A DNA stretch of 64,000 bases from positions 10,511 through 74,510 of the forward strand of contig CAYSNL010000001.1 in NCBI GenBank assembly GCA_964432435.1. The letters run 5' to 3'. Of the stretch, positions 6,595 to 64,000 are shown one piece after another. A model generated the notes under the pieces. That model worked only from the letters and a program-made list of their open reading frames with translations. It had not been told where the DNA came from and ran no database searches. Source of the stretch: Candidatus Woesearchaeota archaeon (lineage in GTDB: Archaea > Nanobdellota > Nanobdellia > SCGC-AAA011-G17 > JACPIM01). Position numbers and translations under genes: made by a program. Each line of letters begins with the position of its first letter. Position 1 is the first letter of the stretch.

Positions 6595-6966
6595 ATGCAA
6601 GTAGAAAAAGTTAAGATAATAGAAAATAAATCATTAGTTACAAAATGTGATTTTTGCTTTGAAGAAAATCAGACAATGGATAAATGTGACTTATGTAGCA
6701 AGGATTTTTGCTGGCAACATGGTAAAGTTTATGCAAGAAAGAGTTATCAAATAACCCCTACACCGATATATACACCTAATACTACATGGGCTCCTCTTCC
6801 TACATGGCAACTTACTGGTGGGTGGTTTGAGAAAACTGATACTTGCTCTGGAACTAGCTCGGTTATAATCAACTATTTTGCTGAAGCCATAATCCTAAAA
6901 CTATGCCAAGAATGCAGAAAACCAGAGTACGACAAAATTCTGGAAATTATTATAGGAAGATCTTAA
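6595..6966 (+). CDS. Cys-rich zinc-finger-like protein
   Basis: CDFCF...CDLCSKDFC and C-terminal CQEC. Confidence 0.45.
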   Translation: MQVEKVKIIENKSLVTKCDFCFEENQTMDKCDLCSKDFCWQHGKVYARKSYQITPTPIYTPNTTWAPLPTWQLTGGWFEKTDTCSGTSSVIINYFAEAIILKLCQECRKPEYDKILEIIIGRS

Positions 6967-6990
6967 ATTTCTAGAGAGATAAAATAACGT

Positions 6991-9900
6991 ATGGGTACAA
7001 TTAGCTGGAAGACAATATTTTTTCCGCAGTTTGAGCCTGGGGGACTACATGCAGTAAACACAGGCGTAAATTCCAGGTCATTAGATGATTTCGAGAGTTA
7101 TACATCCGATGGTGCCTTGCAGGCTATATGGTCTGTTACTGGTGGGGCAGGGGCAGTCACTAGAACAACTGCTGCTAATGCTCTTCAAGGTCAGCAATCC
7201 CTCCAGACAGTTGTAGCTGGCGCTACTGGTACTATCAATAGAGCTATAAATAATAATATATTTGCCTTCCCAGCTGGTGGTAGAATCCGTTATGTATCCT
7301 TTCGGGGAATTGTAACAACTGGAACCAGCGCTATTCGCATTAGGCTTTCTGATGCTTCAGATGCTACATTATATAAAGAATGGGCCTTTACTTTAGGCAC
7401 AGATGTAACCAGAGAGCACGTCGTAGATTTATATTCAGCAGCCGCTGGGTACCAAAATCAGGAAGGGTATCCTGGCCCAATAGCTGAGGGAGCTACTGCG
7501 TGGAATCCTCTCTTAATAGACCGAATAGAGTTTAGGAATTTAGCTGACGGCTCTACATATAGATTTGATGACATTAGATTCTATTATCAATATAGCCTGT
7601 TAGATGCGATTGGCTTCGGCACCGAGCCTGCCACCGATGACGGTGCTGATGGAAGCCTGAATTCAAAAATAAGATACTTAAACAACATAGTCTTACAGCT
7701 CATAGGTTCTACGGATGAGTACAACAAATATGGGCCTGCTGAAGTTAGATTAAATAACTCATACACTTGGGGGCTAGAACTAAAAGGGATGGCCGAACAA
7801 GGCATCCCTACTACTACAGAAATAACTCCAGGCAATTATACAATTGACAGAGTTAGAAATGGTACTACTACTAACATCGTGGCATCAACAGGGGCCACTG
7901 AGGCTGCTGGTTTTATATCAGCAACTTATACTCCTTTAGAAGATAACTGGGTATTGGGGGACGAAATAGTTGTTACCTTTAGCGGAGGTAGAGTAGACAG
8001 TGATACTGATACTGCTGTTACGCCTACTGCTAACATAGGTCTTGGTGCTACGACTATTGCATTAGCAAATGCTGCATTATTCCAAGCAGGGCAAAGAATT
8101 AGAATCTATGATGATTTGACTACAGAATATAACACAGTAGCAAGCGTTGACTCCCCAACTCAGATTACTGTTACTGCTACGGCTAATGCTTATACGGCTG
8201 CTAATAACTTTAGAGTTGTCCTTGTAGAAAGAAATGATCTTCAAACAGCTAGATTTGCAGGTAATGTATCGCATCAACCAGAAATTACTGCTGAATTAGA
8301 AAGATGGGTATTAGCTGATTATGATGACTTTGATTTTGCAGATGCCGATGGCAACAATGAGAGATGGGACACTGGATATATAGCTAACACTGACGGTAGC
8401 GCAGCAGGGGCAGAAGGTGGCACTGCTGACATTAACACTTCTGTTGCTGGACAGGCTAGAGTTAGGGTTGATCCAGATGCGACTCCAACCAGGTCTGCAT
8501 ATGCTATAAAAAGAGACGAGACATTCCGAAGCAGATATTATAGTGTAATGGTAGATGCTGATGTAACACTAAATACTACAGAAGCTACAGCTACATATGC
8601 AGGATTGAGAATATCTGCTGGTGATGTTGATGACCCCGCTAACTACATAATAATAACTAGAGAAGCATCCAGTGGGTTTAATAGAATTTCAGCCCATGCT
8701 GAATTTAATAACATCGCACAAACTGATGTTAATTTTAGCACTACTGATAATGCCGTAGCTTTCAAAATAGAACGCTATGGTAATGTCTGGAATCTATTCT
8801 ACAGCCTGACTCAATACCCGAACTGGGTATGGACCAAACTAACTCAATATGAAGATGCCAATGGGGATATGACATCTGTCACCAGCGCTTATTTATATGC
8901 AGAAAGCGTTGGGACCACCGATACTCAAATTGCCACTGGTGACTTTGACAATTGGAAATATTATATTGGCTCTGGTGCGATTGACCAGATTCTTTCTACA
9001 TTAGTTCTAGCTACTGGTACTTTTACTACCTCATCTGCAACAGTCCCAGCTGACACAGGAAGACTAGAGGGAGACAACTATTGGAATGGCACATTAATAA
9101 TACCTACTAATGGAGTGGCTGCATTCCAGCCAAGAACAATTGTTGCATTTGCTAATGCTGGTGGTGTATTCACAATTGACCCAGAAGCAGTATTTACAGT
9201 TGCCCCAGCAGTTGGCGACGAATATGCTATTGTAGCCTACCAATATCCATTAGAGCCAGGCACAGATGCAACAAGTAATTCTGCAAGTGCCCATGTGGTT
9301 GGAAGCAAGGCAGATACAGCCCAGTATGATGGGACTAGCACAAATAGTTCTCTCGTTAGACTATTACGGGCAGTGCATAGGGGAGAAATATTAGCTAGCG
9401 GGACATTAACTTTATCAGATACCACCAATCCTGCTGATGCTGGGCGAACAGAAGCAGATAATTATTGGAATGGTAGCTGGTTAATGACTACAGCAGGGGC
9501 AGTAGCGTTCCAGCCCAGGCTAATAACAGACTTCCAGAATGCTACAGGGACTTTCAACCTTGACAGCCAGCAGCCATTTACTGCTGCCCCAGGCTTAGTA
9601 GCATATGTTATATTGGCCCCAAATAGTCAACTTGTTCCTACTGCTGATGCTGCTACTAATACTACTCCAGCCCATGTCATTGGCAATAAGTCTGACGCTG
9701 CTAGTGTTACCGCAGGGTCTGCTTCTATTATTGCTAGATTAAGGGCAATAGAAGCTGCTTTGTCTGTCAATACTTCTGCTGGTGGAGAATTTGAGTTAGA
9801 TGGCACTCCAGATTTGTGGGACGCATTAGTAACAGATAGTTCTGCTCAAGCTGACATCACAACATTGACTGGTAATAGAGATGCTGCTGTAATACAAAGA

Positions 9901-35846: not shown

Positions 35847-35921
35847 GGCGGGGTGGAGCAGCGGCAGCTCGTTGGGCTCATAACCCAAAGGTCGTTGGTT
35901 CGAATCCAACCCCCGTCTCCC
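35847..35921 (+). tRNA. tRNA-Met (anticodon CAU); anticodon stem has the three G-C pairs typical of initiator tRNA. A lysidine-type tRNA-Ile2 cannot be excluded
   Basis: Acceptor GGCGGGG/CCCCGTC. D-arm GAGC-AGCGGCA-GCTC. Anticodon arm TTGGG-CTCATAA-CCCAA. T-arm GTTGG-TTCGAAT-CCAAC. Confidence 0.75.
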
Positions 35922-36307
35922 AAGACAATAATTAAAACTTTAAGAGCATAAAGGAGATGTAAAATGGAAAAACAACGCAACAAAGAAGTCCGAATTTTAG
36001 ACGACAAAGAAGGTAGTGAGCTTTTCTATTCATGGATGAAAGAATTGACATTAGACCAGCAAAACTGTATAAGAATATTCCTAAGATCAAATGATTTTAA
36101 ACATGAGTAAAACATAGGATTAAAATGAAGAAACAAACAACACATCATATTCCTAATTCAATAAAAAAAGACTTACCAAATCCTAATTGCAAATGTGGTA
36201 AACCAATGCGGATTGTGATTCAACCAGGCCAACATATTCATCCATGTCCCGTTCATCCAGACAAAGCCGTGTATGGCTTAAATATAATTTATAGAAAACC
36301 ACTAAGA

Positions 36308-36385
36308 GCAGCAATAGCTCAATTAGGTAGAGCAGATGTCTTATATACATCCAGGCTGAAGGTTCAAATCCTTCTTGCTGCACCA
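36308..36385 (+). tRNA. tRNA-Ile (anticodon UAU, reads AUA), with encoded CCA
   Basis: Acceptor GCAGCAA/TTGCTGC. D-arm GCTC-AATTAGGTA-GAGC. Anticodon arm GATGT-CTTATAT-ACATC. T-arm GAAGG-TTCAAAT-CCTTC. Discriminator A then CCA. Confidence 0.7.
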
Positions 36386-46689: not shown

Positions 46690-47625
46690 TTGTCGAAGAA
46701 GAATGATTCAATAGAAGAATTGCTAAAAAACGGCTTAATGAAATATGGCTCCGATAAGAGTTTGTTATTCGATAGGGTAGCATTTGGGATAGAGTCGTTA
46801 GACAAGCTAGTAGGCGGCGGGATACCTAAAAAGAGAATGTCATTGTTTACTGGCCCCCCAAGTTCAGGGAAATCATATTTAGCATCACAAGCTGTAGTTA
46901 GTGAACAAAAGAATGGTGGAGTAGCAGCTTGGATAGATACGGAGTTATCTTGGGATCCAGTTTGGATGGAAAGATGTGGGGTTGATATTGATAAAATTTA
47001 TTTAGTTCAGCCGACAACAGGAGAAGAAGCATTTGATACGATTAAAGTGTTAATGAATGAAAAAGTAGGAGTTATTGTTCTAGACAGTATTGCAGGAATA
47101 GTCCCGACAGCGGTGCAAGAAGAAGATTTTTCATACAATCCTGTAGCATGGCAGGCTAGGTTTGTTAATCAATCTATTCCTAAACTATTTCCTTCATTAA
47201 AGAACGGGTCAGCCTTAATCGTAATAAATCAAGTCCGTTCTAGTCTTGGGCCCGTGTCATTAGATAATATGCCAGGAGGAGTGGCACAGCAATTCTTTGC
47301 ACATTTCATATTGCAGATTAGGCGAGAAGGCTGGATAGAAGATGCTGATAAAAACAAGATGGGGTTTGACATAAAAATAAGTTGTAAGAAAAGTAAGGTT
47401 GGAGGACAGCCGTATCAATCTTGCACAGTCCCATTTAGACTAGAAGGTGGGATTGATCTTTTGGAAACTGTCATCAGAGAAGCATTAGACAAAGGTATAA
47501 TAGAACAAGCTAGGGCTTGGTTTAAATGGGGAGATCTTAAAGTGATTGGGATGAAAGGAGTTAAAGAATATTTGATAAATAATCCAGATAAAAAATTAGA
47601 GTTGGAAAGTTTAATCAAAGAATAG
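46690..47625 (+). CDS. RecA/RadA-family recombinase
   Basis: Walker A FTGPPSSGKSYLASQ, RecA-like core; TTG start. Confidence 0.65.
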   Translation: MSKKNDSIEELLKNGLMKYGSDKSLLFDRVAFGIESLDKLVGGGIPKKRMSLFTGPPSSGKSYLASQAVVSEQKNGGVAAWIDTELSWDPVWMERCGVDIDKIYLVQPTTGEEAFDTIKVLMNEKVGVIVLDSIAGIVPTAVQEEDFSYNPVAWQARFVNQSIPKLFPSLKNGSALIVINQVRSSLGPVSLDNMPGGVAQQFFAHFILQIRREGWIEDADKNKMGFDIKISCKKSKVGGQPYQSCTVPFRLEGGIDLLETVIREALDKGIIEQARAWFKWGDLKVIGMKGVKEYLINNPDKKLELESLIKE

Positions 47626-56495: not shown

Positions 56496-58121
56496 GTGTC
56501 CCAATCTCTTTTGACATACAAACAAGCACTAACTAATCTAGCTGATAGTTTATTAACTAGAGACGAAAAGTCCATCAAAATAGGTGGATTTTATGAATTT
56601 GTAAGGGATATTTGGTCTAAAAGTTATGAGCATCCTGAGCGTTTCAAGATGTTCCACATCGAAGTAATATGCCATGATGTAGAAGAAGCATTAGCTACTG
56701 GTAAAAATTATGTTTGTGTTCTTCCTCGAGGGTTTTTAAAGTCAACGGTGCCTGGATATGCTTTTTGTATTTGGCGTTTATTGAAAATGGGAAATTCAGA
56801 CAGTACAATTCTTTATACATCATTTTCAGATGGGATGAGTCAATACCATATATCTGAAATGAAGAAACATATAAGGCGTAATCCAATTCTTTCTGAATGG
56901 ATGATAGACAGGAGTCCAAATGCTGACTTTTCATTTAGATATTCTGTAAATGGATTCCAAAAGAATATTTTACATGGTGGGGTTTTGTCATTCAAAAGAG
57001 GGACCCACGTAGATGGGGCAGTGGTGGCGGATGATCTCTTACAGGACCCAGATAATCCAGCCAGGCCTACAGAGATATTAAAGGTTGAAGAATTTTTCTT
57101 TTCAGAGACAATGTATATTCCTAATCCAGGAGTGCCAGTCTTTGTATTAGGGACTCCCTTATTACCGGACGATCTATTATCAAAGCTTAAAAAAGATGAT
57201 CGTTTTTTGTATCGTTTTATGCCGGCCTTAGACCCAATTCCAGGAAGAAGAGTTTTAGCCCCAGAAATTAGAGATGAAGCCCAGTTGTTAAGAGAAAAAG
57301 CTGCAAGACCTCACGCTTTTGCAGCAGAAATGATGCTATCTCCTATGTCTTCTGTGAAGGGATATTTTACTGATACTGATATTAGTAGATGTGAAAATAA
57401 AGATTTAGCATCATTTGATCCATACAAAGAATGGGATTTTAACAGTGAGTTTACAGTTGCTGGGTTTGATGTGGGAAAAAAGAGGCACCCCTCTCATCTA
57501 GCTGTTTATGCAAGTAAAGGAGGTGTACTGAAACAAGTTCATCAAGTATTTCTAGATGGATGGGATTATAATATTCAAAAAGAATATTTAAATACAGTAG
57601 CCAAAAATTTTGCTCTTGATGTAGGATACTATGACAGCACCAGAGGAGAATTAGACGATAGGGGGCTAGATTCTAGGTGGAAGTCATTAAATTTTACCTT
57701 GAAAGACAAGAGAAAAATGGCCCAGGTGTTTGAAGAATTTGTTCAATCAGGAAATTTATCTCTTATTGTTGATGAACGTCAAAAATCGCAAATATTGGCA
57801 GTGGATAATGACTTAGATGCAGCAGAGAGTCCGCTCGGGCATGGAGATTCATTTTGGTCTAATGCTTTAGCATTATTAGCATACAAAGACAAGACAACAG
57901 TTGGGACGCAAGATGTTGGAAATGTTCAGGATATATTTGGAAACGATAAGACTAAAGAAAATATTAATTTTAAAGAATTTGTGCAACCAATAAATTTAGG
58001 CACAGGATGCCCTAATTGTAAAGAATTTGTAGGCTGGATAGAAGAAAGAAAATTATGCTTGATTTGCCAGCATAGATGTAATGATAATTGTATTCATACT
58101 GGAGAGAAAAATGGGGGCTAA
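56496..58121 (+). CDS. Terminase large subunit
   Basis: Deviant Walker A of terminases (VCVLPRGFLKSTV), acidic nuclease-like C-terminal half; GTG start. Confidence 0.55.
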   Translation: MSQSLLTYKQALTNLADSLLTRDEKSIKIGGFYEFVRDIWSKSYEHPERFKMFHIEVICHDVEEALATGKNYVCVLPRGFLKSTVPGYAFCIWRLLKMGNSDSTILYTSFSDGMSQYHISEMKKHIRRNPILSEWMIDRSPNADFSFRYSVNGFQKNILHGGVLSFKRGTHVDGAVVADDLLQDPDNPARPTEILKVEEFFFSETMYIPNPGVPVFVLGTPLLPDDLLSKLKKDDRFLYRFMPALDPIPGRRVLAPEIRDEAQLLREKAARPHAFAAEMMLSPMSSVKGYFTDTDISRCENKDLASFDPYKEWDFNSEFTVAGFDVGKKRHPSHLAVYASKGGVLKQVHQVFLDGWDYNIQKEYLNTVAKNFALDVGYYDSTRGELDDRGLDSRWKSLNFTLKDKRKMAQVFEEFVQSGNLSLIVDERQKSQILAVDNDLDAAESPLGHGDSFWSNALALLAYKDKTTVGTQDVGNVQDIFGNDKTKENINFKEFVQPINLGTGCPNCKEFVGWIEERKLCLICQHRCNDNCIHTGEKNGG

Positions 58122-60354
58122 TTTAACACCACAAGCAAAATATATTTTAGAGCAAAGATATTTAAGACGAGATGAGAATGGAGACATTATTGAAACTCCA
58201 GAACAATTGTTTGAACGAGTGGCAAGGGCAGTCTCTAATGGAGAGCCAATAGAGAGTGACAGACAAATATATTTTCAAAGATTTTATGACTTAATGACTT
58301 CATTGAAATTTTTGCCTAATTCTCCTACATTGGTAAATGCTGGAGTAGAAGGAAAAGGTTGCCTAAGCGCATGTTTTGTTTGCTCCCCCGAAGAAGACAC
58401 GATGGAGTCAATTTTACAAACACAGAAAGATTGGGGGATGATAGAGAAATGGGGTGGCGGAGTAGGAATAGGCTTAAGCATTATTAGGCCAAAAGGTGAC
58501 AGAATCAGTACCACTCACGGAAAGGCATTAGGGCCAGTAGCAATAATGCATATGTTGTCTACAAATGCAAAGCATATAACACAGGGCAGCTTTCGTCTCG
58601 GGGCCCATATGGCTCAATTAGCTGTTTCTCACAATGATATTTTTGAGTTTATCCACTGTAAAGACAAAGATGATACATTAGAGAATTTCAATATTAGTGT
58701 ACAGATAACTGATGAGTTTATGCAGGCCTTAGAAAAAGGGGAGGACTGGCATTTAGTGAATTCTAAAAACAATGAAGTAATGCAGACAATTCCAGCCAAA
58801 CAATTATGGCAGGAAATATGCGGGTCTGCTTGGAAAACAGGAGATCCAGGAGTAGTATTCATAGACCGGGTATGGGAAACAGCCCCAAATCCACAATTAG
58901 GGGGGATTCAGACGAGCAATCCCTGCGGGGAGGAATTTCTTGAAAATTACTCAAATTGTTGTCTCGGTTCCATAGATTTAAGTAAATTTGTTATTGAGGG
59001 AAAGTTTGACTTTGAGGATTTTGATAGAGTAGTTTATTTAGCAATTAGATTTTTAAATGATGTAATTGAAGTTAATACATTCCCAATTCCCCATTTACGT
59101 GAAATGAACTTGAAGACTAGGCGTATTGGTTTGGGAGTAATGGGGTTTGCCGATGCATTGATAAAATTAGGGCTGCCATATGACAGCGAAGCTGCATTAG
59201 GAATGGCTAGATTGATAGGAAAAAAACTAAAAAATTCAGCATGGTTAGAATCTTTTAGATTGGCTGATGAAAGAGGGGCATATTCTGAGTATAAAAATTC
59301 TAGCCTCAAGTATGAATTTAAAAATAAGCCAGTTAGAAATTCTAGTGTCATAACCATAGCTCCTACAGGCACGATTTCGAGATTGGCTAATTGTTCCAGC
59401 GGCATAGAGCCGTGTTTTGATTTAGCTTATTGGTCTAATATTTTATGGACAGATCATGATGGGAAAAGCACTAAATTTCTTGATGTCCCATCTAGTGTGA
59501 AAGACGTACTAGAACGAGATTGGGGGGCGGAGAAAGTTAATGAAATTTTAATAGCTATTGCTAATAATCCAGAGAAAACCCGAGCAATTCTGAAAGCATA
59601 TTATGGAATTAATGCAGACATATTTAGAACAGCAATGGAAATATCTCCTGAATGGCATGTAAAAATGCAGGCGGCATGGCAGGAGAATGTAACAAATTCT
59701 GTATCCAAGACAATAAATCTTCCAGAAGATGCTACTGTAAATGATGTATCCGAGGCTTTTAAATTAGCTTGGGAATTGAAGTGCAAAGCTGTGACTGTAT
59801 ATAGGGACAAATCAAAGTCTATGCAAGTATTAAATAAGGCAGAAGGACTTAGTGAATTAGTAAAAGTTATAGACAATATAAAGCTAGTTGTCAAAGACAG
59901 GCCTGCGGTAATGACTGGAGTTACTGAAAAAGTAAAGACTGGGCACGGAAATGCTTATGTAACAATCAATTTTGAAGGTACAGACCCATTTGAATTATTT
60001 ACTACGTTGGGGAAAGCTGGGGGCTGTGACTCGGCAAATTTAGAAGCAATATCTAGATTAGTATCATTAGCTTTTAGATATGGAATTGATACAAAAGAAG
60101 TAATTGCACAGCTAAAAGGCATTACTTGCTGCCCAGTATGGAATGAAGGCACAATGATAAAATCAACGGCAGATGGAATAGCATATGCAATATCTAAAAA
60201 TGTATTAAAAGAGGATGAAATAAGTTATAATAATAAAATAGGTGGGTCTATAGAGAAAAATGGGCATTTAGTATGCATACAGTGTGGAGGAGAATTGATT
60301 CGTAAAGAAGGTTGCATTGTTTGTAAAGATTGCTCTTGGACTCGTTGTGAGTAA
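58111..60354 (+). CDS. nrdJ: Ribonucleotide reductase catalytic subunit (class II-like, adenosylcobalamin-type) with C-terminal zinc ribbon
   Basis: Active-site loop SNPCGEEFL; N-terminal LEQRYL. C-terminal CIQCGGEL...CIVCKDC zinc ribbon. Start moved to ATG at 58111 with GGAGAG RBS. Confidence 0.8.
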   Translation: MGANLTPQAKYILEQRYLRRDENGDIIETPEQLFERVARAVSNGEPIESDRQIYFQRFYDLMTSLKFLPNSPTLVNAGVEGKGCLSACFVCSPEEDTMESILQTQKDWGMIEKWGGGVGIGLSIIRPKGDRISTTHGKALGPVAIMHMLSTNAKHITQGSFRLGAHMAQLAVSHNDIFEFIHCKDKDDTLENFNISVQITDEFMQALEKGEDWHLVNSKNNEVMQTIPAKQLWQEICGSAWKTGDPGVVFIDRVWETAPNPQLGGIQTSNPCGEEFLENYSNCCLGSIDLSKFVIEGKFDFEDFDRVVYLAIRFLNDVIEVNTFPIPHLREMNLKTRRIGLGVMGFADALIKLGLPYDSEAALGMARLIGKKLKNSAWLESFRLADERGAYSEYKNSSLKYEFKNKPVRNSSVITIAPTGTISRLANCSSGIEPCFDLAYWSNILWTDHDGKSTKFLDVPSSVKDVLERDWGAEKVNEILIAIANNPEKTRAILKAYYGINADIFRTAMEISPEWHVKMQAAWQENVTNSVSKTINLPEDATVNDVSEAFKLAWELKCKAVTVYRDKSKSMQVLNKAEGLSELVKVIDNIKLVVKDRPAVMTGVTEKVKTGHGNAYVTINFEGTDPFELFTTLGKAGGCDSANLEAISRLVSLAFRYGIDTKEVIAQLKGITCCPVWNEGTMIKSTADGIAYAISKNVLKEDEISYNNKIGGSIEKNGHLVCIQCGGELIRKEGCIVCKDCSWTRCE

Positions 60355-60365
60355 AAGGAGATGAA

Positions 60366-60632
60366 ATGGACGGATTACAAATAGGTAGAATAGTTCATTA
60401 TGTATTATGGCCTCATGAAACAAATCATGGTTTTCCAGAACATAAGGCAGCTATAATAACTAATCTTTTTGGCAATGATGGTCTAGCTAATTTAACTGTT
60501 TTTATGGATTGGTCAAATGATAAAAAAGACTCTCCTGGAGATGCTATGAGTGGCCCATTATGTTGGGCAACTTCCAGACCATATAGTGAAGAGCCAAAAC
60601 CTGGAACTTGGCATTGGCCAGAGAAAGTGTAG
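60366..60632 (+). CDS. Hypothetical protein
   Basis: 88-aa ORF with AGGAG RBS. Confidence 0.4.
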   Translation: MDGLQIGRIVHYVLWPHETNHGFPEHKAAIITNLFGNDGLANLTVFMDWSNDKKDSPGDAMSGPLCWATSRPYSEEPKPGTWHWPEKV

Positions 60633-60641
60633 AGGAGATAT

Positions 60642-61148
60642 ATGCCAATAGGAGATAATTTAAGTCGGGTAGACCAGCAATATATAGCAAAAAAAGATGA
60701 TAAGAATACTTGGCGTATTTTGAATTTGTGGCACCCAGAATTAAAGAATTTATCCTCTGGTGAAGATGATGTTCCAGACAATCATCCTGCGGTAACTATA
60801 TTGACAGAGGGGGCATTTTTGGCTCTAGTAAAATCAGCAGTACAGGAAGGGGTAATTCAAAATGCTGTAATGTCTGCTGAAGTGGCACATGATAATTGTG
60901 TTAAAGGGAAAGACCTTGATATATTGTATGATAAAATAGGTAGGGCTGAGGTTGAAATAAATTTTCTTACTAAAAGTGTAACAGAAAAATCTGCGGCTAT
61001 TAAATTATTGGAGGATGAAAATTCATTATTAAAACAAGAAAAGCCTAGATCAGAAGCATTTGAGACTACAAAGTTAGTGGTAGACTCTCTAGTACGATTA
61101 GCCGGGATGAGTAATTTAAAAGATAAGGATGAAAGGAATAAGACTTAA
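60642..61148 (+). CDS. Hypothetical coiled-coil protein
   Basis: 168-aa ORF. Confidence 0.45.
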   Translation: MPIGDNLSRVDQQYIAKKDDKNTWRILNLWHPELKNLSSGEDDVPDNHPAVTILTEGAFLALVKSAVQEGVIQNAVMSAEVAHDNCVKGKDLDILYDKIGRAEVEINFLTKSVTEKSAAIKLLEDENSLLKQEKPRSEAFETTKLVVDSLVRLAGMSNLKDKDERNKT

Positions 61149-61162
61149 TATAGAGAAATAAT

Positions 61163-63082
61163 TTGAAAATATCAGAATATCTTCCAGAGTTACCTGGTCT
61201 AATGCAGCAAGAGCAAAGATTAACTTCTCTTGCTGATCAATTGTCTCTAATAAAAGCTGATTCAGATACATATCGTGCCCCGTCCCTTGGCCTCGATACA
61301 ATTATAAATACCTGGCTTAGAAATCAGTTAGTATATCGCCAAAATATGATGACTGATTTAATGAGAATTTCTAAAACTATAGAAGAAATACGAGCGCCGA
61401 TTCATCATATAACTGCCGAAGTATTTCGTAGGGGTATTTCATGGAAGCCAAAATTCGCTGTTAAGTGCCAGGAATGCCAGACAGAATATAATGATGTCAT
61501 GAAAGAATGTCCTAAATGTCATTCTACAGACCTAATATCTCCAGATGAAGGACAGAAGAAAAAATTAGAAAGTTTTCTTATTGACTGTAACATATTTGAT
61601 AATAGTTTAGAAGAAGTTTTAAGACAGTTTAATTATGACTTAAATGCACTTGATGATGCATTCCTGTATCTCGTTAAAGAATACATGGCTGCTGAAGACG
61701 GAAAAATTAGATCTAAAGTAATCGAAGTGAGGCGATTGGATCCAGCCTTTATGGAGTTTGATTTAGATCCACAAGGTCTTCCTAAGAATAAGTCATTTCT
61801 TTGTTATATTCATAGAGATATAAATGTAGCCACAACTCCTGGGGCTTGTATTGAATGTGGCAGAACATTAGTCCCAGCAATGTATAAATACTATCACAGA
61901 AATAAGCCGATGTATTTGCTTGATACTGAAGTGATACATTCTTCAAAATTTGACCCGAGCGAAACTTACGGTTGGAGCCCCATATTAACTATTTTTGAAA
62001 AGGCAATGACTATTATCGGCATGGATCGTAATATGTATCGTTATTTCTTTGAGCGCAAAATGCCTGCAGGGATGATAATGGTGTTTACGGATAACCCAGA
62101 GAGTCTTATAAAAGAACGGGCAGAGTTAGCCTTAAAGACTAGACAAGACCCAAATTATATTCCAATGGTTGCTGTATCGTCTAAAGGAAATCGTGGAAGA
62201 GTGGACTTTGTAAAGTTATTTCATACATTACAAGAAATGGACTATATGCCTGTAAGAAATGAAATAAGAGAGAGAATAGCATCTATGTGGGGAGTTACCC
62301 CAGCTTGGCAAGGTGCCCCAGATGCATTTGGTGGTATTTCAAATCAGACACAACAATTAACAGTGATGTCTCGTGTAGTAGAAACAGATCAGAGATTATT
62401 TCACGATAAAGTTTTTCCTAGAATTATGGATTCATTTGGAATAACTGATTGGGAGTTAGAGCTTCCCATACCAGAAGAGAAAGCAGAAGCTACCAGAATT
62501 TCATTTGCTCAGCAAAAAATTAGTGCAGCAAATATGCTTCTCCAAATGGGCTTTGATGTAAAGGCTAAATCTCAGGAAGTCGGATTAATTGATATTGATT
62601 TTGTAGTATCTGGTGAAGCAAAGAAGATAGATTATAGTTCAATGATGGGTGGAGGACAAGGGGGACTAGGTGGAATGGGGGGAGAAGGACTGCCAGGAGG
62701 GATTCCTGGATTAGAATTACCTGAAGAAGAGCAACCAAGTCAAAACCAATCACAGCAATACCCTGAACAAGGTTTGAGACTAATGGAAAAAGCACACGGA
62801 TGGGCAGACCAGATATTAAAAGCTGGATATTTTCCGATGATAAAACAAGTAAATCCAGTTGGGCCTGTGATTTGGTTTACTCAAAATAATACTGATTATG
62901 TGGCTAAGTTTGATAATAATATTTTGAAGGATATAAGTAAGGCAATCTTTCCCCGACTTCATGCACATGACGGTCGTCCTCCTCATGATCCAAATATTCC
63001 CCATAATACAGTAGATAGAAAATTACAGAGTGACAGCAAGATTTTCGAAGCAGAAGAGCCAGACGAAGTTGATAATGAATAG
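61163..63082 (+). CDS. Candidate portal protein (639 aa) with inserted zinc ribbon and Gly-rich acidic C-terminus
   Basis: Size and position downstream of terminase genes. CQECQ...CPKC ribbon. C-terminal GGGQGGLGGMGGEG then acidic tail. Confidence 0.4.
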   Translation: MKISEYLPELPGLMQQEQRLTSLADQLSLIKADSDTYRAPSLGLDTIINTWLRNQLVYRQNMMTDLMRISKTIEEIRAPIHHITAEVFRRGISWKPKFAVKCQECQTEYNDVMKECPKCHSTDLISPDEGQKKKLESFLIDCNIFDNSLEEVLRQFNYDLNALDDAFLYLVKEYMAAEDGKIRSKVIEVRRLDPAFMEFDLDPQGLPKNKSFLCYIHRDINVATTPGACIECGRTLVPAMYKYYHRNKPMYLLDTEVIHSSKFDPSETYGWSPILTIFEKAMTIIGMDRNMYRYFFERKMPAGMIMVFTDNPESLIKERAELALKTRQDPNYIPMVAVSSKGNRGRVDFVKLFHTLQEMDYMPVRNEIRERIASMWGVTPAWQGAPDAFGGISNQTQQLTVMSRVVETDQRLFHDKVFPRIMDSFGITDWELELPIPEEKAEATRISFAQQKISAANMLLQMGFDVKAKSQEVGLIDIDFVVSGEAKKIDYSSMMGGGQGGLGGMGGEGLPGGIPGLELPEEEQPSQNQSQQYPEQGLRLMEKAHGWADQILKAGYFPMIKQVNPVGPVIWFTQNNTDYVAKFDNNILKDISKAIFPRLHAHDGRPPHDPNIPHNTVDRKLQSDSKIFEAEEPDEVDNE

Positions 63083-64000
63083 TTGTGAATGTGGTTGTGG
63101 TATAGAGTGTAAGAAGAGATTTGTTCATAATCATCAGAAAAGGAATGTTCATTTATCTGTTGAACACAAAATAAAACTTAGGTTGGCTGGATTGGGAAGA
63201 AAACAGTCTAAAGAGACAATTGAGAAGAGAGTTGCTAAGATAAGAGGAATAGCATGTTCTGAAAATACTAAAAGCAAAATTAGCGAGACATTAAAGAAAT
63301 ATGAAATTACTAAGGTTCATCGGGATGCTCTTTCTAAGTCTAAATATGGGAGGGTATTGAGCGAAGAGCATAAAAATGCTATTAGATTAAATCGTCCAGA
63401 TTTTTCAGGTAATAAACATCCGATGTATGGCAAGCATCACTCAGAATCTACTAGAATTAAAATGTCTTTGTCTCAAAAAGGAAAGAAACATTTATATGCA
63501 TATAAGTTTTCAGAAAAAGATAAAGTTAAAATATCTATAGCTAGAAAAAGTAAGAAATTATCGGAGCATCATATTGAAGCACTGAAAAAGTCTTGGAATA
63601 ACCCAGAAGTAGCAGCTAGAAGATTATTTAGTATTTTAAGAAGTAATTTTAATAGACCCAATAAATCAGAAACAAGGTTGTCTTTACTTTTATCAGATTT
63701 AAATACAGACTTTAAATATGTTGGCAACGGAAGTTTTATTATTGATCATAAAAATCCAGACTTTGTAAATAAAGAATCTAAGAAAATAATTGAGTTACAA
63801 GGTTGTTACTGGCATGGCTGCAAAATTTGTTTCCCAAATTCTAAGAAATCAAATAATTTTCCAGATCGTCAACAAATTTTTAAACCTGCTGGATATGATT
63901 CAATAGAAATCTGGGAGCATGAATTGAAGAGTCCAGAAGTAGTAATTAGCAAAGTTAAGGATTTTAATAGTTTAGATGAAATTGAAAAGGCATGTAAAGA
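63075..64000 (+). CDS. Homing-endonuclease-like protein with NUMOD3 repeats and Vsr-like PD-(D/E)xK domain (3' partial, runs off window)
   Basis: ATG at 63075 overlaps the portal stop (ATGAATAG). Repeated EEHKxKI/ESTRIKMS NUMOD3-like helices. C-terminal IIDHKNP...ELQGCYWHGC resembles Vsr DGCFWHGH. Confidence 0.55.
   Translation, partial: MNSCECGCGIECKKRFVHNHQKRNVHLSVEHKIKLRLAGLGRKQSKETIEKRVAKIRGIACSENTKSKISETLKKYEITKVHRDALSKSKYGRVLSEEHKNAIRLNRPDFSGNKHPMYGKHHSESTRIKMSLSQKGKKHLYAYKFSEKDKVKISIARKSKKLSEHHIEALKKSWNNPEVAARRLFSILRSNFNRPNKSETRLSLLLSDLNTDFKYVGNGSFIIDHKNPDFVNKESKKIIELQGCYWHGCKICFPNSKKSNNFPDRQQIFKPAGYDSIEIWEHELKSPEVVISKVKDFNSLDEIEKACK

Follow-up and report, generated by a model that had tools for sequence, protein, structure and literature searches.

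A probable free-standing EDxHD / Vsr-like homing endonuclease gene at the portal/DUF192 junction of an uncultured phage

We analyzed a 64,000-nucleotide stretch of DNA filed as a Candidatus Woesearchaeota archaeon (assembly GCA_964432435.1, contig CAYSNL010000001.1, positions 10,511 to 74,510 of the forward strand), which we refer to as the window, and in particular the open reading frame (ORF) whose start overlaps the stop codon of a phage portal gene close to the window end. An original prediction, made from the sequence without database searches, had described this ORF as a gene for a NUMOD3-repeat, Vsr-like endonuclease inserted next to the portal gene. The evidence presented below indicates that it is, with high probability, an intact free-standing homing endonuclease gene (HEG) of the EDxHD / Vsr-like family, present as a promoter-less cassette that is coupled to the portal gene. 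Its product combines a DNA-binding array with a nuclease domain in which the catalytic residues of the family are intact, and the gene is an extra one between 2 genes that overlap each other in the closest syntenic relative of this phage.

Nuclease domain and architecture of the HEG protein

A profile built from 40 homologs of the HEG protein was compared with solved structures and matched the catalytic domain of I-Bth0305I (3r3p) with an E-value of 1.5e-7 and the Escherichia coli Vsr protein (1odg, 1vsr, and 1cw0) with an E-value of 3e-4. The family profile was needed because a search of the PDB with the single sequence was uninformative and produced Vsr at E 1.6 only. We then used Foldseek with an AlphaFold2 model built on the 40-homolog alignment (mean predicted local distance difference test score [pLDDT] of 80, and above 90 across most of the nuclease domain), for which the top PDB matches were 1vsr (E 2e-4) and 3r3p (E 3.7e-4; TM 0.72-0.74), followed by other Vsr-like folds. 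The structure-based identity to I-Bth0305I was approximately 22% over the nuclease domain. The Vsr-type catalytic core of the original prediction was thus recovered by both profile and fold. The EDxHD family is defined by residues E170, D196, N208, H213, and D222 of I-Bth0305I, which are equivalent to E25, D51, H64, H69, and D97 of Vsr (Taylor et al. 2011, PMC3239194). When the HEG protein was checked in sequence, E199, D229, Q242, H247, and D264 were found to share alignment columns with all five of these residues. In the 40 homologs, E199, the P228-D229-F230 triplet, E240, G243, H247, R265, and G273 are invariant, and W280 and E281 are nearly so. The DUF559 profile (PF04480) was matched by 12 of the 40 homologs and not by the HEG protein (Pfam, no match at E ≤ 1), and the relation to DUF559 is therefore one at the superfamily level. 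By every feature of the EDxHD / Vsr-like family that a sequence can reveal, the HEG protein belongs to it, and EDxHD / Vsr-like homing endonuclease is the more precise family name (PMC3239194).

Judged from its alignment and its predicted structure, the HEG protein is composed of 3 parts: an N-terminal Cys/His knuckle, approximately eight NUMOD3-like helices, and the C-terminal Vsr-fold nuclease (Table 1). The knuckle (C-E-C-G-C-G...F-V-H-N-H) follows the family consensus CxCGCG-x8-F-x2-GH, a loose version of which is present in 41 of 120 homologs, and residues 1-20 were modeled with a pLDDT of 81-87. Behind the knuckle, the Pfam NUMOD3 profile (PF07460) scored 37 bits against a gathering score of 20.4, with the best stretch at residues 92-131, upstream of the nuclease. 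The strict pattern S/T-x-E-x-x-x-K/R-hydrophobic was seen 4 times, compared with 0.19 expected from shuffled sequences (0 of 2000 shuffles reached 4), and approximately 8 units could be recognized over residues 27-175 by eye and from the AlphaFold helices. The original claim of at least four NUMOD3-like helices was confirmed, and the peptides quoted for the helices and the core (EEHKNAIRLN, ESTRIKMSLSQKGKK, and GCYWHGC) are all present in the translated ORF. NUMOD3 was also matched by 31 of the 40 aligned homologs, among which the number of units (S-x-E-x-x-x-K-hydrophobic) varies, and the repeat region of the family profile gave a weak match to the DNA-binding domain of I-TevI (1i3j, E 0.014). 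In PHROGs, the repeat region matched phrog_314 ('homing endonuclease') and the C-terminus matched phrog_13076 ('endonuclease'), while NCBIfam returned sub-threshold matches to vsr and to a group I intron endonuclease.

The HEG protein also carries the motif G-C244-Y-W-H247-G-C249-K-I-C252, plus H282 within W-E-H. In the alignment with Vsr and I-Bth0305I, residues C244, C249/C252, and H282 fall at or beside the Vsr zinc ligands C66, H71, C73, and C117, a correspondence that holds at the sequence level only; I-Bth0305I is without the Vsr zinc site (PMC3239194). Among 116 homologs with a recognizable core, the motif reads G-D-Y-W-H in 81 and G-C ([YF]-[WFY]-H) in 9. A CxxC following the G-C core was found in 6 of the 116, including the HEG protein itself and its best-scoring homologs P0002, P0003, and P0008. 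The HEG protein is therefore part of a minority clade in which a Vsr-like zinc motif, a putative metal site, has been preserved.

An extra gene at the portal/DUF192 junction

The complete gene was read from contigs matching the window. The 93-kb contig L088 equals the window sequence with 0 mismatches over 2838 nt, and contig L089 was also recovered by exact look-up of the portal protein. From these contigs, the full-length product consists of 327 amino acids (aa); the exact protein has an NCBI entry, hypothetical protein HYS94_01850, from a 'Candidatus Daviesbacteria' metagenome-assembled genome (MAG). Of the extent initially given to the gene (63075-64000), the start was correct and the end was not, because the gene is cut by the end of the window (Table 1). 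The start at ATG 63075 is supported by the alignment of 40 homologs, which begin one to a few residues ahead of the same CxCGCG motif. As originally stated, this ATG overlaps the TAG stop codon of the portal gene, within the octamer ATGAATAG. There is no spacer between the 2 genes and, therefore, translational coupling is likely. At its other end, the HEG overlaps the start of the next gene by 23 nt in L088.

To determine the gene order in relatives of this phage, synteny controls were drawn from Logan, ENA, and JGI contigs. The closest syntenic relative was L090 (ENA record 'Hain_H14_01um', 51.5 kb), in which the genes for the large terminase (TerL) and ribonucleotide reductase (RNR) are followed by a small gene, the portal gene, and the genes for a DUF192 protein, a NUDIX protein, topoisomerase IB, and an SNF2 helicase. 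In the window contig, the order is TerL, RNR, an 88-aa gene, a 168-aa gene, portal, HEG, DUF192-ADP-ribosyltransferase, NUDIX, a 295-aa gene, and SNF2 helicase. The window portal is intact to its C-terminus in comparison with relatives (residues 1-634 of 639 align with the L090 portal at 61% identity), and identities between the 2 contigs are 33% for the DUF192 domain, 37% for NUDIX, and 55% for SNF2. In L090, which has no HEG, the start codon of the DUF192 gene is located within the last codons of the portal gene and, hence, there is no room for an extra gene in this junction. The HEG of the window contig occupies exactly the portal/DUF192 junction and overlaps both neighbors, and the 2 flanking genes are complete and separate.

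The original prediction had proposed a comparison with related phages that lack the ORF, and such phages were found. No HEG homolog follows the portal gene in L092, L093, L094, L101, L102, or L103, or in 80 IMG/VR contigs with related portals. In the 80 IMG/VR contigs, the portal is not followed by the DUF192, NUDIX, and SNF2 genes either, and because this synteny is missing the contigs are unusable as empty sites and constitute weaker controls. The gene is consequently not universal among relatives. The portals of the relatives compared are 47-61% identical to the window portal and, because the closest of them share only 55-61%, the 'empty site' is a synteny argument and not a recent empty allele. 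The junction itself is plastic in this phage clade: it holds a 62-aa ORF in L093 and L094 and four small ORFs in L102, and in L103 the helicase gene directly follows the portal gene. HEG-like genes recur around the portal in this clade at different sites, since L102 (3012-4499) and L103 (4052-4834), the portals of which are 55-56% identical, carry a gene with a CxCxCG knuckle and NUMOD3-like repeats directly upstream of the portal gene. The L102 gene additionally encodes a DUF559 nuclease domain, and a DUF559 fragment of 55 aa is located nearby. The claim of an insertion beside the portal gene therefore holds in that an extra gene is present there compared with L090, but calling this position typical was an overstatement, because free-standing HEGs generally sit between conserved or essential genes and not specifically beside portals (PMC2988022, PMC10448857).

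Searches of GenBank phages produced no near match to positions 60000-64000 of the window (megablast) and, with the HEG protein (tblastn), a single match to the NUMOD3 region in a Rhizobium phage, the nuclease domain being unmatched. Two further observations were made on the relatives. Small stand-alone DUF559/Vsr-like genes (approximately 100 aa, nuclease domain only) are located after recA in L090 (606-911) and L092 (487-786), and no counterpart of them was detectable in the window by tblastn with the HEG. In the IMG/VR relative L004 (10001-13411), a segment homologous to portal residues 539-596 is located at the C-terminus of the next gene (577 aa), outside the 555-aa portal ORF; the position of the C-terminal portal module differs among relatives.

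Table 1. Features of the HEG and related genes (window coordinates unless a contig is named)
Feature	Position	Strand	Details
Portal gene, upstream flank of the insertion	61163..63082	+	phrog_18178 'portal protein', E 3.5e-47
Start/stop overlap ATGAATAG	63075..63082	+	HEG ATG 63075-63077 over portal TAG 63080-63082, different frame
HEG, part within the window	63075..64000	+	first 308 of 327 codons; ORF open to the last base
HEG, full length	L088 11913-12896		ends at window-equivalent position 64058, 58 nt past the window
N-terminal Cys/His knuckle, residues 4-20	63084..63134	+	alignment of 40 homologs
NUMOD3-like DNA-binding helical repeats (about eight), residues 27-175	63153..63599	+	Pfam, AlphaFold2 helices, pattern count
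Vsr-fold (EDxHD) nuclease domain, C-terminal, residues 190-297	63642..63965	+	profile, Foldseek, alignment
Candidate catalytic residue E199	63669-63671	+
Candidate catalytic residue D229	63759-63761	+
Candidate catalytic residue Q242 (x position)		+
Candidate catalytic residue H247	63813-63815	+
Candidate catalytic residue D264	63864-63866	+
Vsr-type zinc-ligand candidates C244, C249, C252, H282			alignment with Vsr and I-Bth0305I
Phage-encoded RecA	46690..47625	+	Pfam RecA, E 4e-44

Proposed mode of action and alternative explanations

We analyzed the surroundings of the HEG for expression signals and for signs of other types of mobile element. Counts of promoter and terminator signals in the HEG region equaled the expectation from shuffled sequences, and no group I or group II intron was matched by Rfam in L088 9500-15000 at E ≤ 1. 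Flanking direct or inverted repeats and a target duplication were not found at the window HEG beyond chance-level short matches, and no HEG paralog is present elsewhere in the window. For the free-standing HEGs of T4, promoter-less cassettes in the orientation of the host gene are the norm (PMC2988022). NUMOD3 repeats with an EDxHD nuclease and no intron correspond to the free-standing architecture that had been predicted, and homing itself would follow by analogy. The HEG would be transcribed together with the portal gene as part of the late structural operon, and its translation would probably be coupled to that of the portal through ATGAATAG. By analogy with I-Bth0305I, the protein would bind a long site, its NUMOD3 array covering tens of base pairs, and, probably as a dimer, would cut DNA by means of E199, D229, H247, D264, and a Mg2+ ion. 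If a HEG-less relative infected the same cell, the enzyme would cut the genome of that relative at or near the portal/DUF192 junction, after which recombinational repair would use the HEG-carrying genome as the template for copying the HEG and flanking markers; the phage-encoded RecA (Table 1) could be the source of this recombination. Because free-standing enzymes may cut hundreds of base pairs away from their own insertion site (PMC2988022), the target of the HEG could lie in the portal gene or in the DUF192 gene instead of at the junction.

Several observations weigh against an intact, mobile HEG. Neither a near-identical empty-site allele nor a co-conversion tract nor a presence/absence polymorphism was found in the databases searched. 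A true empty-site allele was not found because the closest portal among 5.8 billion proteins is only 61% identical, and exact-match scans for the portal 3' end, as would be present in an empty-site variant, returned no matches in JGI metagenome contigs and GTDB genomes. Among the matches listed, all contigs with exactly the same portal carry the HEG, and in identical form. The composition of the gene gives no clear foreign signal either: its GC content is 0.302, compared with a gene mean of 0.360 ± 0.044 (z = -1.35), which is within the phage's own gene range, and equally low values occur in 7 of 62 genes. The three annotatable genes of these 7 (a UDG-domain protein, thymidylate synthase, and a D12 adenine methyltransferase) are ordinary phage genes. 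At the protein level, the Pfam Vsr profile (PF03852, residues 195-249) scored 20.4 bits (E 4.7e-4), below its gathering score of 27, and the residue preceding the invariant R265 is unconserved, the position of D264 varying among the 40 aligned homologs. With the family profile and the predicted fold taken into account, the nuclease assignment is nevertheless much stronger than this single-sequence Pfam score suggests.

The identity of the HEG in all contigs recovered would also fit a domesticated or 'weaponized' nuclease of HEG ancestry that has lost homing and either cuts the DNA of a competitor phage, a satellite, or the host or helps DNA processing near packaging. The overlap with both neighbors, together with the absence of a spacer and of an own promoter, suggests a long residence in the late operon, the HEG adjoins packaging genes (portal and TerL), and HEG-related genes act in phage-phage and phage-satellite conflict (PMC10448857). 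However, the HEG is absent from every syntenic relative and is thus not part of a conserved packaging or structural module, its long NUMOD3 array is the architecture of a site-specific HEG, and homing and marker exclusion do not differ in mechanism for free-standing HEGs (PMC2988022), all of which makes domestication improbable. A packaging role of the HNH-like type was considered for the HEG product and rejected.

HEGs are expected to degenerate after fixation as part of the homing cycle, and the gene could accordingly be an inactive, decaying relic of a fixed HEG. A HEG-less allele of this phage was not seen in the databases searched, and the C-terminal tail of the protein is unusually long compared with its homologs and runs into the next gene. 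We nonetheless consider a relic very unlikely, because the ORF is full length without frameshift or internal stop, all family-invariant residues are present, and the nuclease domain is predicted with a pLDDT above 90. That the protein is a Vsr-type very-short-patch repair endonuclease that nicks T:G mismatches, as its weak Pfam and NCBIfam Vsr matches and the retained GCYWH and Vsr-like zinc-ligand positions might suggest, is scarcely credible, since its scores are far below the curated cut-offs (the Pfam score given above, and 24.4 bits for NCBIfam vsr [TIGR00632], which does not reach the cut-off of 97.85), a 190-residue NUMOD3 DNA-binding region that Vsr lacks is fused in front, the family profile is closer to I-Bth0305I than to Vsr, and neither neighbor (portal or DUF192) is a cytosine methyltransferase.

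Two further ideas can be put forward, both of them doubtful. The minority clade with the zinc motif and the CxCGCG knuckle could be an intermediate on the way from cellular Vsr repair enzymes to zinc-less EDxHD homing endonucleases, with cutting under redox- or zinc-dependent control. Separately, the portal gene could be a recurrent landing pad for HEGs in this clade of groundwater phages, downstream of the portal here and upstream of it in L102 and L103; if true, genetic exchange would have one of its boundaries at the portal.

Homologs, phage context, and comparison with known systems

The HEG belongs to a large family: 2,939 representative clusters were counted at E ≤ 1e-10, and relaxing the threshold to E ≤ 1e-3 raises the count to 9,183. 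The neighborhoods of the homologs are unrelated to one another, and one homolog is located between sugar-metabolism genes. Several of these neighborhoods contain likely traces of insertion. In L097 (3102-4808), and in L098, the homolog P0090 (277 aa) is preceded by a 45-aa ORF that corresponds to positions 4-39 of the PDDEXK_15 profile, and a complete PDDEXK_15 gene (profile positions 4-163) follows the homolog. The 45-aa ORF duplicates the 5' end of the downstream gene and is a likely insertion scar. In L081 (2958-6735; IMGVR_UViG_3300028436_000013), phage structural genes alternate with three HEG-like genes of 257, 191, and 266 aa, and the product of the 266-aa gene shares 32% identity with the window HEG. 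Each of the three closes with a wobble-diverged copy of the last codons of its upstream gene (for example, AVLLETSNE* and AVLLETSND*), and the ending ...VF* GGAGGTGTTCTAA is common to three genes, a pattern resembling that of insertions into the 3' ends of genes in which the junction was duplicated. The window gene is flanked by no comparable duplication. The 2724-aa protein P0243 contains a Vsr-like domain at residues 408-552, which may be an intein-embedded or a fused copy.

Regarding the phage itself, all plus-strand ORFs of at least 100 aa in the window belong to one long co-oriented array. The window contains four tRNA genes, at 26458-26662 and 35847-36385 (His-GTG, Leu-TAA, Met-CAT, and Ile-TAT). 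A class II-type RNR gene (58081-60354) is in an unusual place between the large terminase gene (56496-58121) and the portal module. An intein is probably present in its L090 ortholog (6813-9488), which encodes 891 aa, compared with 757 aa for the window ORF, and matches PT-HINT (intein) weakly. Past the window end (L088 12874-16739), the HEG is followed by genes for a DUF192 and ADP-ribosyltransferase protein (679 aa), a NUDIX protein, a protein of 295 aa, and an SNF2 helicase (1218 aa). A short module of 30-60 residues, W(L/V)EKQ..(P)GLVPKK....RWV.P (L088 12874-16739; L090 13796-15439; L101 6828-7643), is shared by several of these proteins and the L090 topoisomerase IB. It occurs twice in the 679-aa protein and may be a common signal by which packaged or ejected proteins are targeted to the capsid or processed. 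The exact proteins of the window are filed under a 'Candidatus Daviesbacteria' MAG, related portals are filed under 'Nanoarchaeota' and 'Pacearchaeota' MAGs, and the records of close relatives are named for 0.1-µm filter fractions (Hain_*_01um). The window and the related records are phage contigs that were binned into MAGs of ultra-small cells (candidate phyla radiation [CPR] and DPANN).

With the HEG, the sixth homing endonuclease family gains another free-standing member; the phage lineage that carries it is uncultured and lacks close relatives in the databases searched. The family, its lifestyle, and its architecture have already been described, and the finding is real but ordinary, with the zinc-site motif as its one small twist. 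A long-footprint EDxHD enzyme with a putative Vsr-type zinc site could help to show how the family evolved from repair enzymes, and the HEG could provide a new specificity for the enzyme toolbox, although its practical value would be modest. For annotation, the HEG marks the portal/DUF192 junction as a plastic site in this clade, and a repair or packaging function should not be assigned to the gene.

Among known systems, the HEG is best compared with I-Bth0305I, the EDxHD prototype, which is encoded in a group I intron in recA of Bacillus phage 0305phi8-36 (PDB 3r3p) and acts as a homodimer with a footprint of approximately 60 bp, producing 2-nt 5' overhangs (PMC3239194). Both proteins have an N-terminal NUMOD-type region followed by a C-terminal Vsr-fold nuclease with all five EDxHD positions, and I-Bth0305I is the best solved-structure match of the family profile and one of the top fold matches. 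In contrast to the intron-encoded I-Bth0305I, which has two NUMOD2 units, the window HEG is free-standing, has approximately eight NUMOD3 units and an extra N-terminal Cys/His knuckle, and keeps the zinc-ligand motif GC-YWH-GC-x2-C ... WEH that I-Bth0305I lacks (PMC3239194). In the EDxHD family, the NUMOD region precedes the nuclease, and free-standing members exist, including phage Hef and metagenomic ORFs (PMC3239194). Hef of T4-related phages (Sandegren et al. 2005, cited in PMC2988022), a free-standing enzyme placed in the Vsr-like family (PMC3239194), resembles the window HEG by description in being free-standing and intergenic, in its nuclease family, and in residing in a phage genome. 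Its flanking genes differ, and any relationship is remote because tblastn gave no match to the nuclease domain in GenBank phages. With E. coli Vsr (1vsr and 1cw0), the HEG protein shares the fold, the residues D51, H69, and D97 (D229, H247, and D264 in the HEG protein), the G-C-[FY]-W-H motif, and candidate zinc-ligand positions; Vsr, however, is a single-domain T:G mismatch repair enzyme without a NUMOD3 array, and the window protein remains below all curated Vsr cut-offs. Finally, the T4 Seg and Mob enzymes, I-TevI, and I-HmuI resemble the window HEG in being promoter-less cassettes that share the orientation of the conserved phage genes around them (PMC2988022) and in their NUMOD3-type DNA-binding modules, but their catalytic domains are of the GIY-YIG or HNH type with the NUMODs at the C-terminus, whereas the window HEG has a Vsr fold preceded by its NUMOD3 array.

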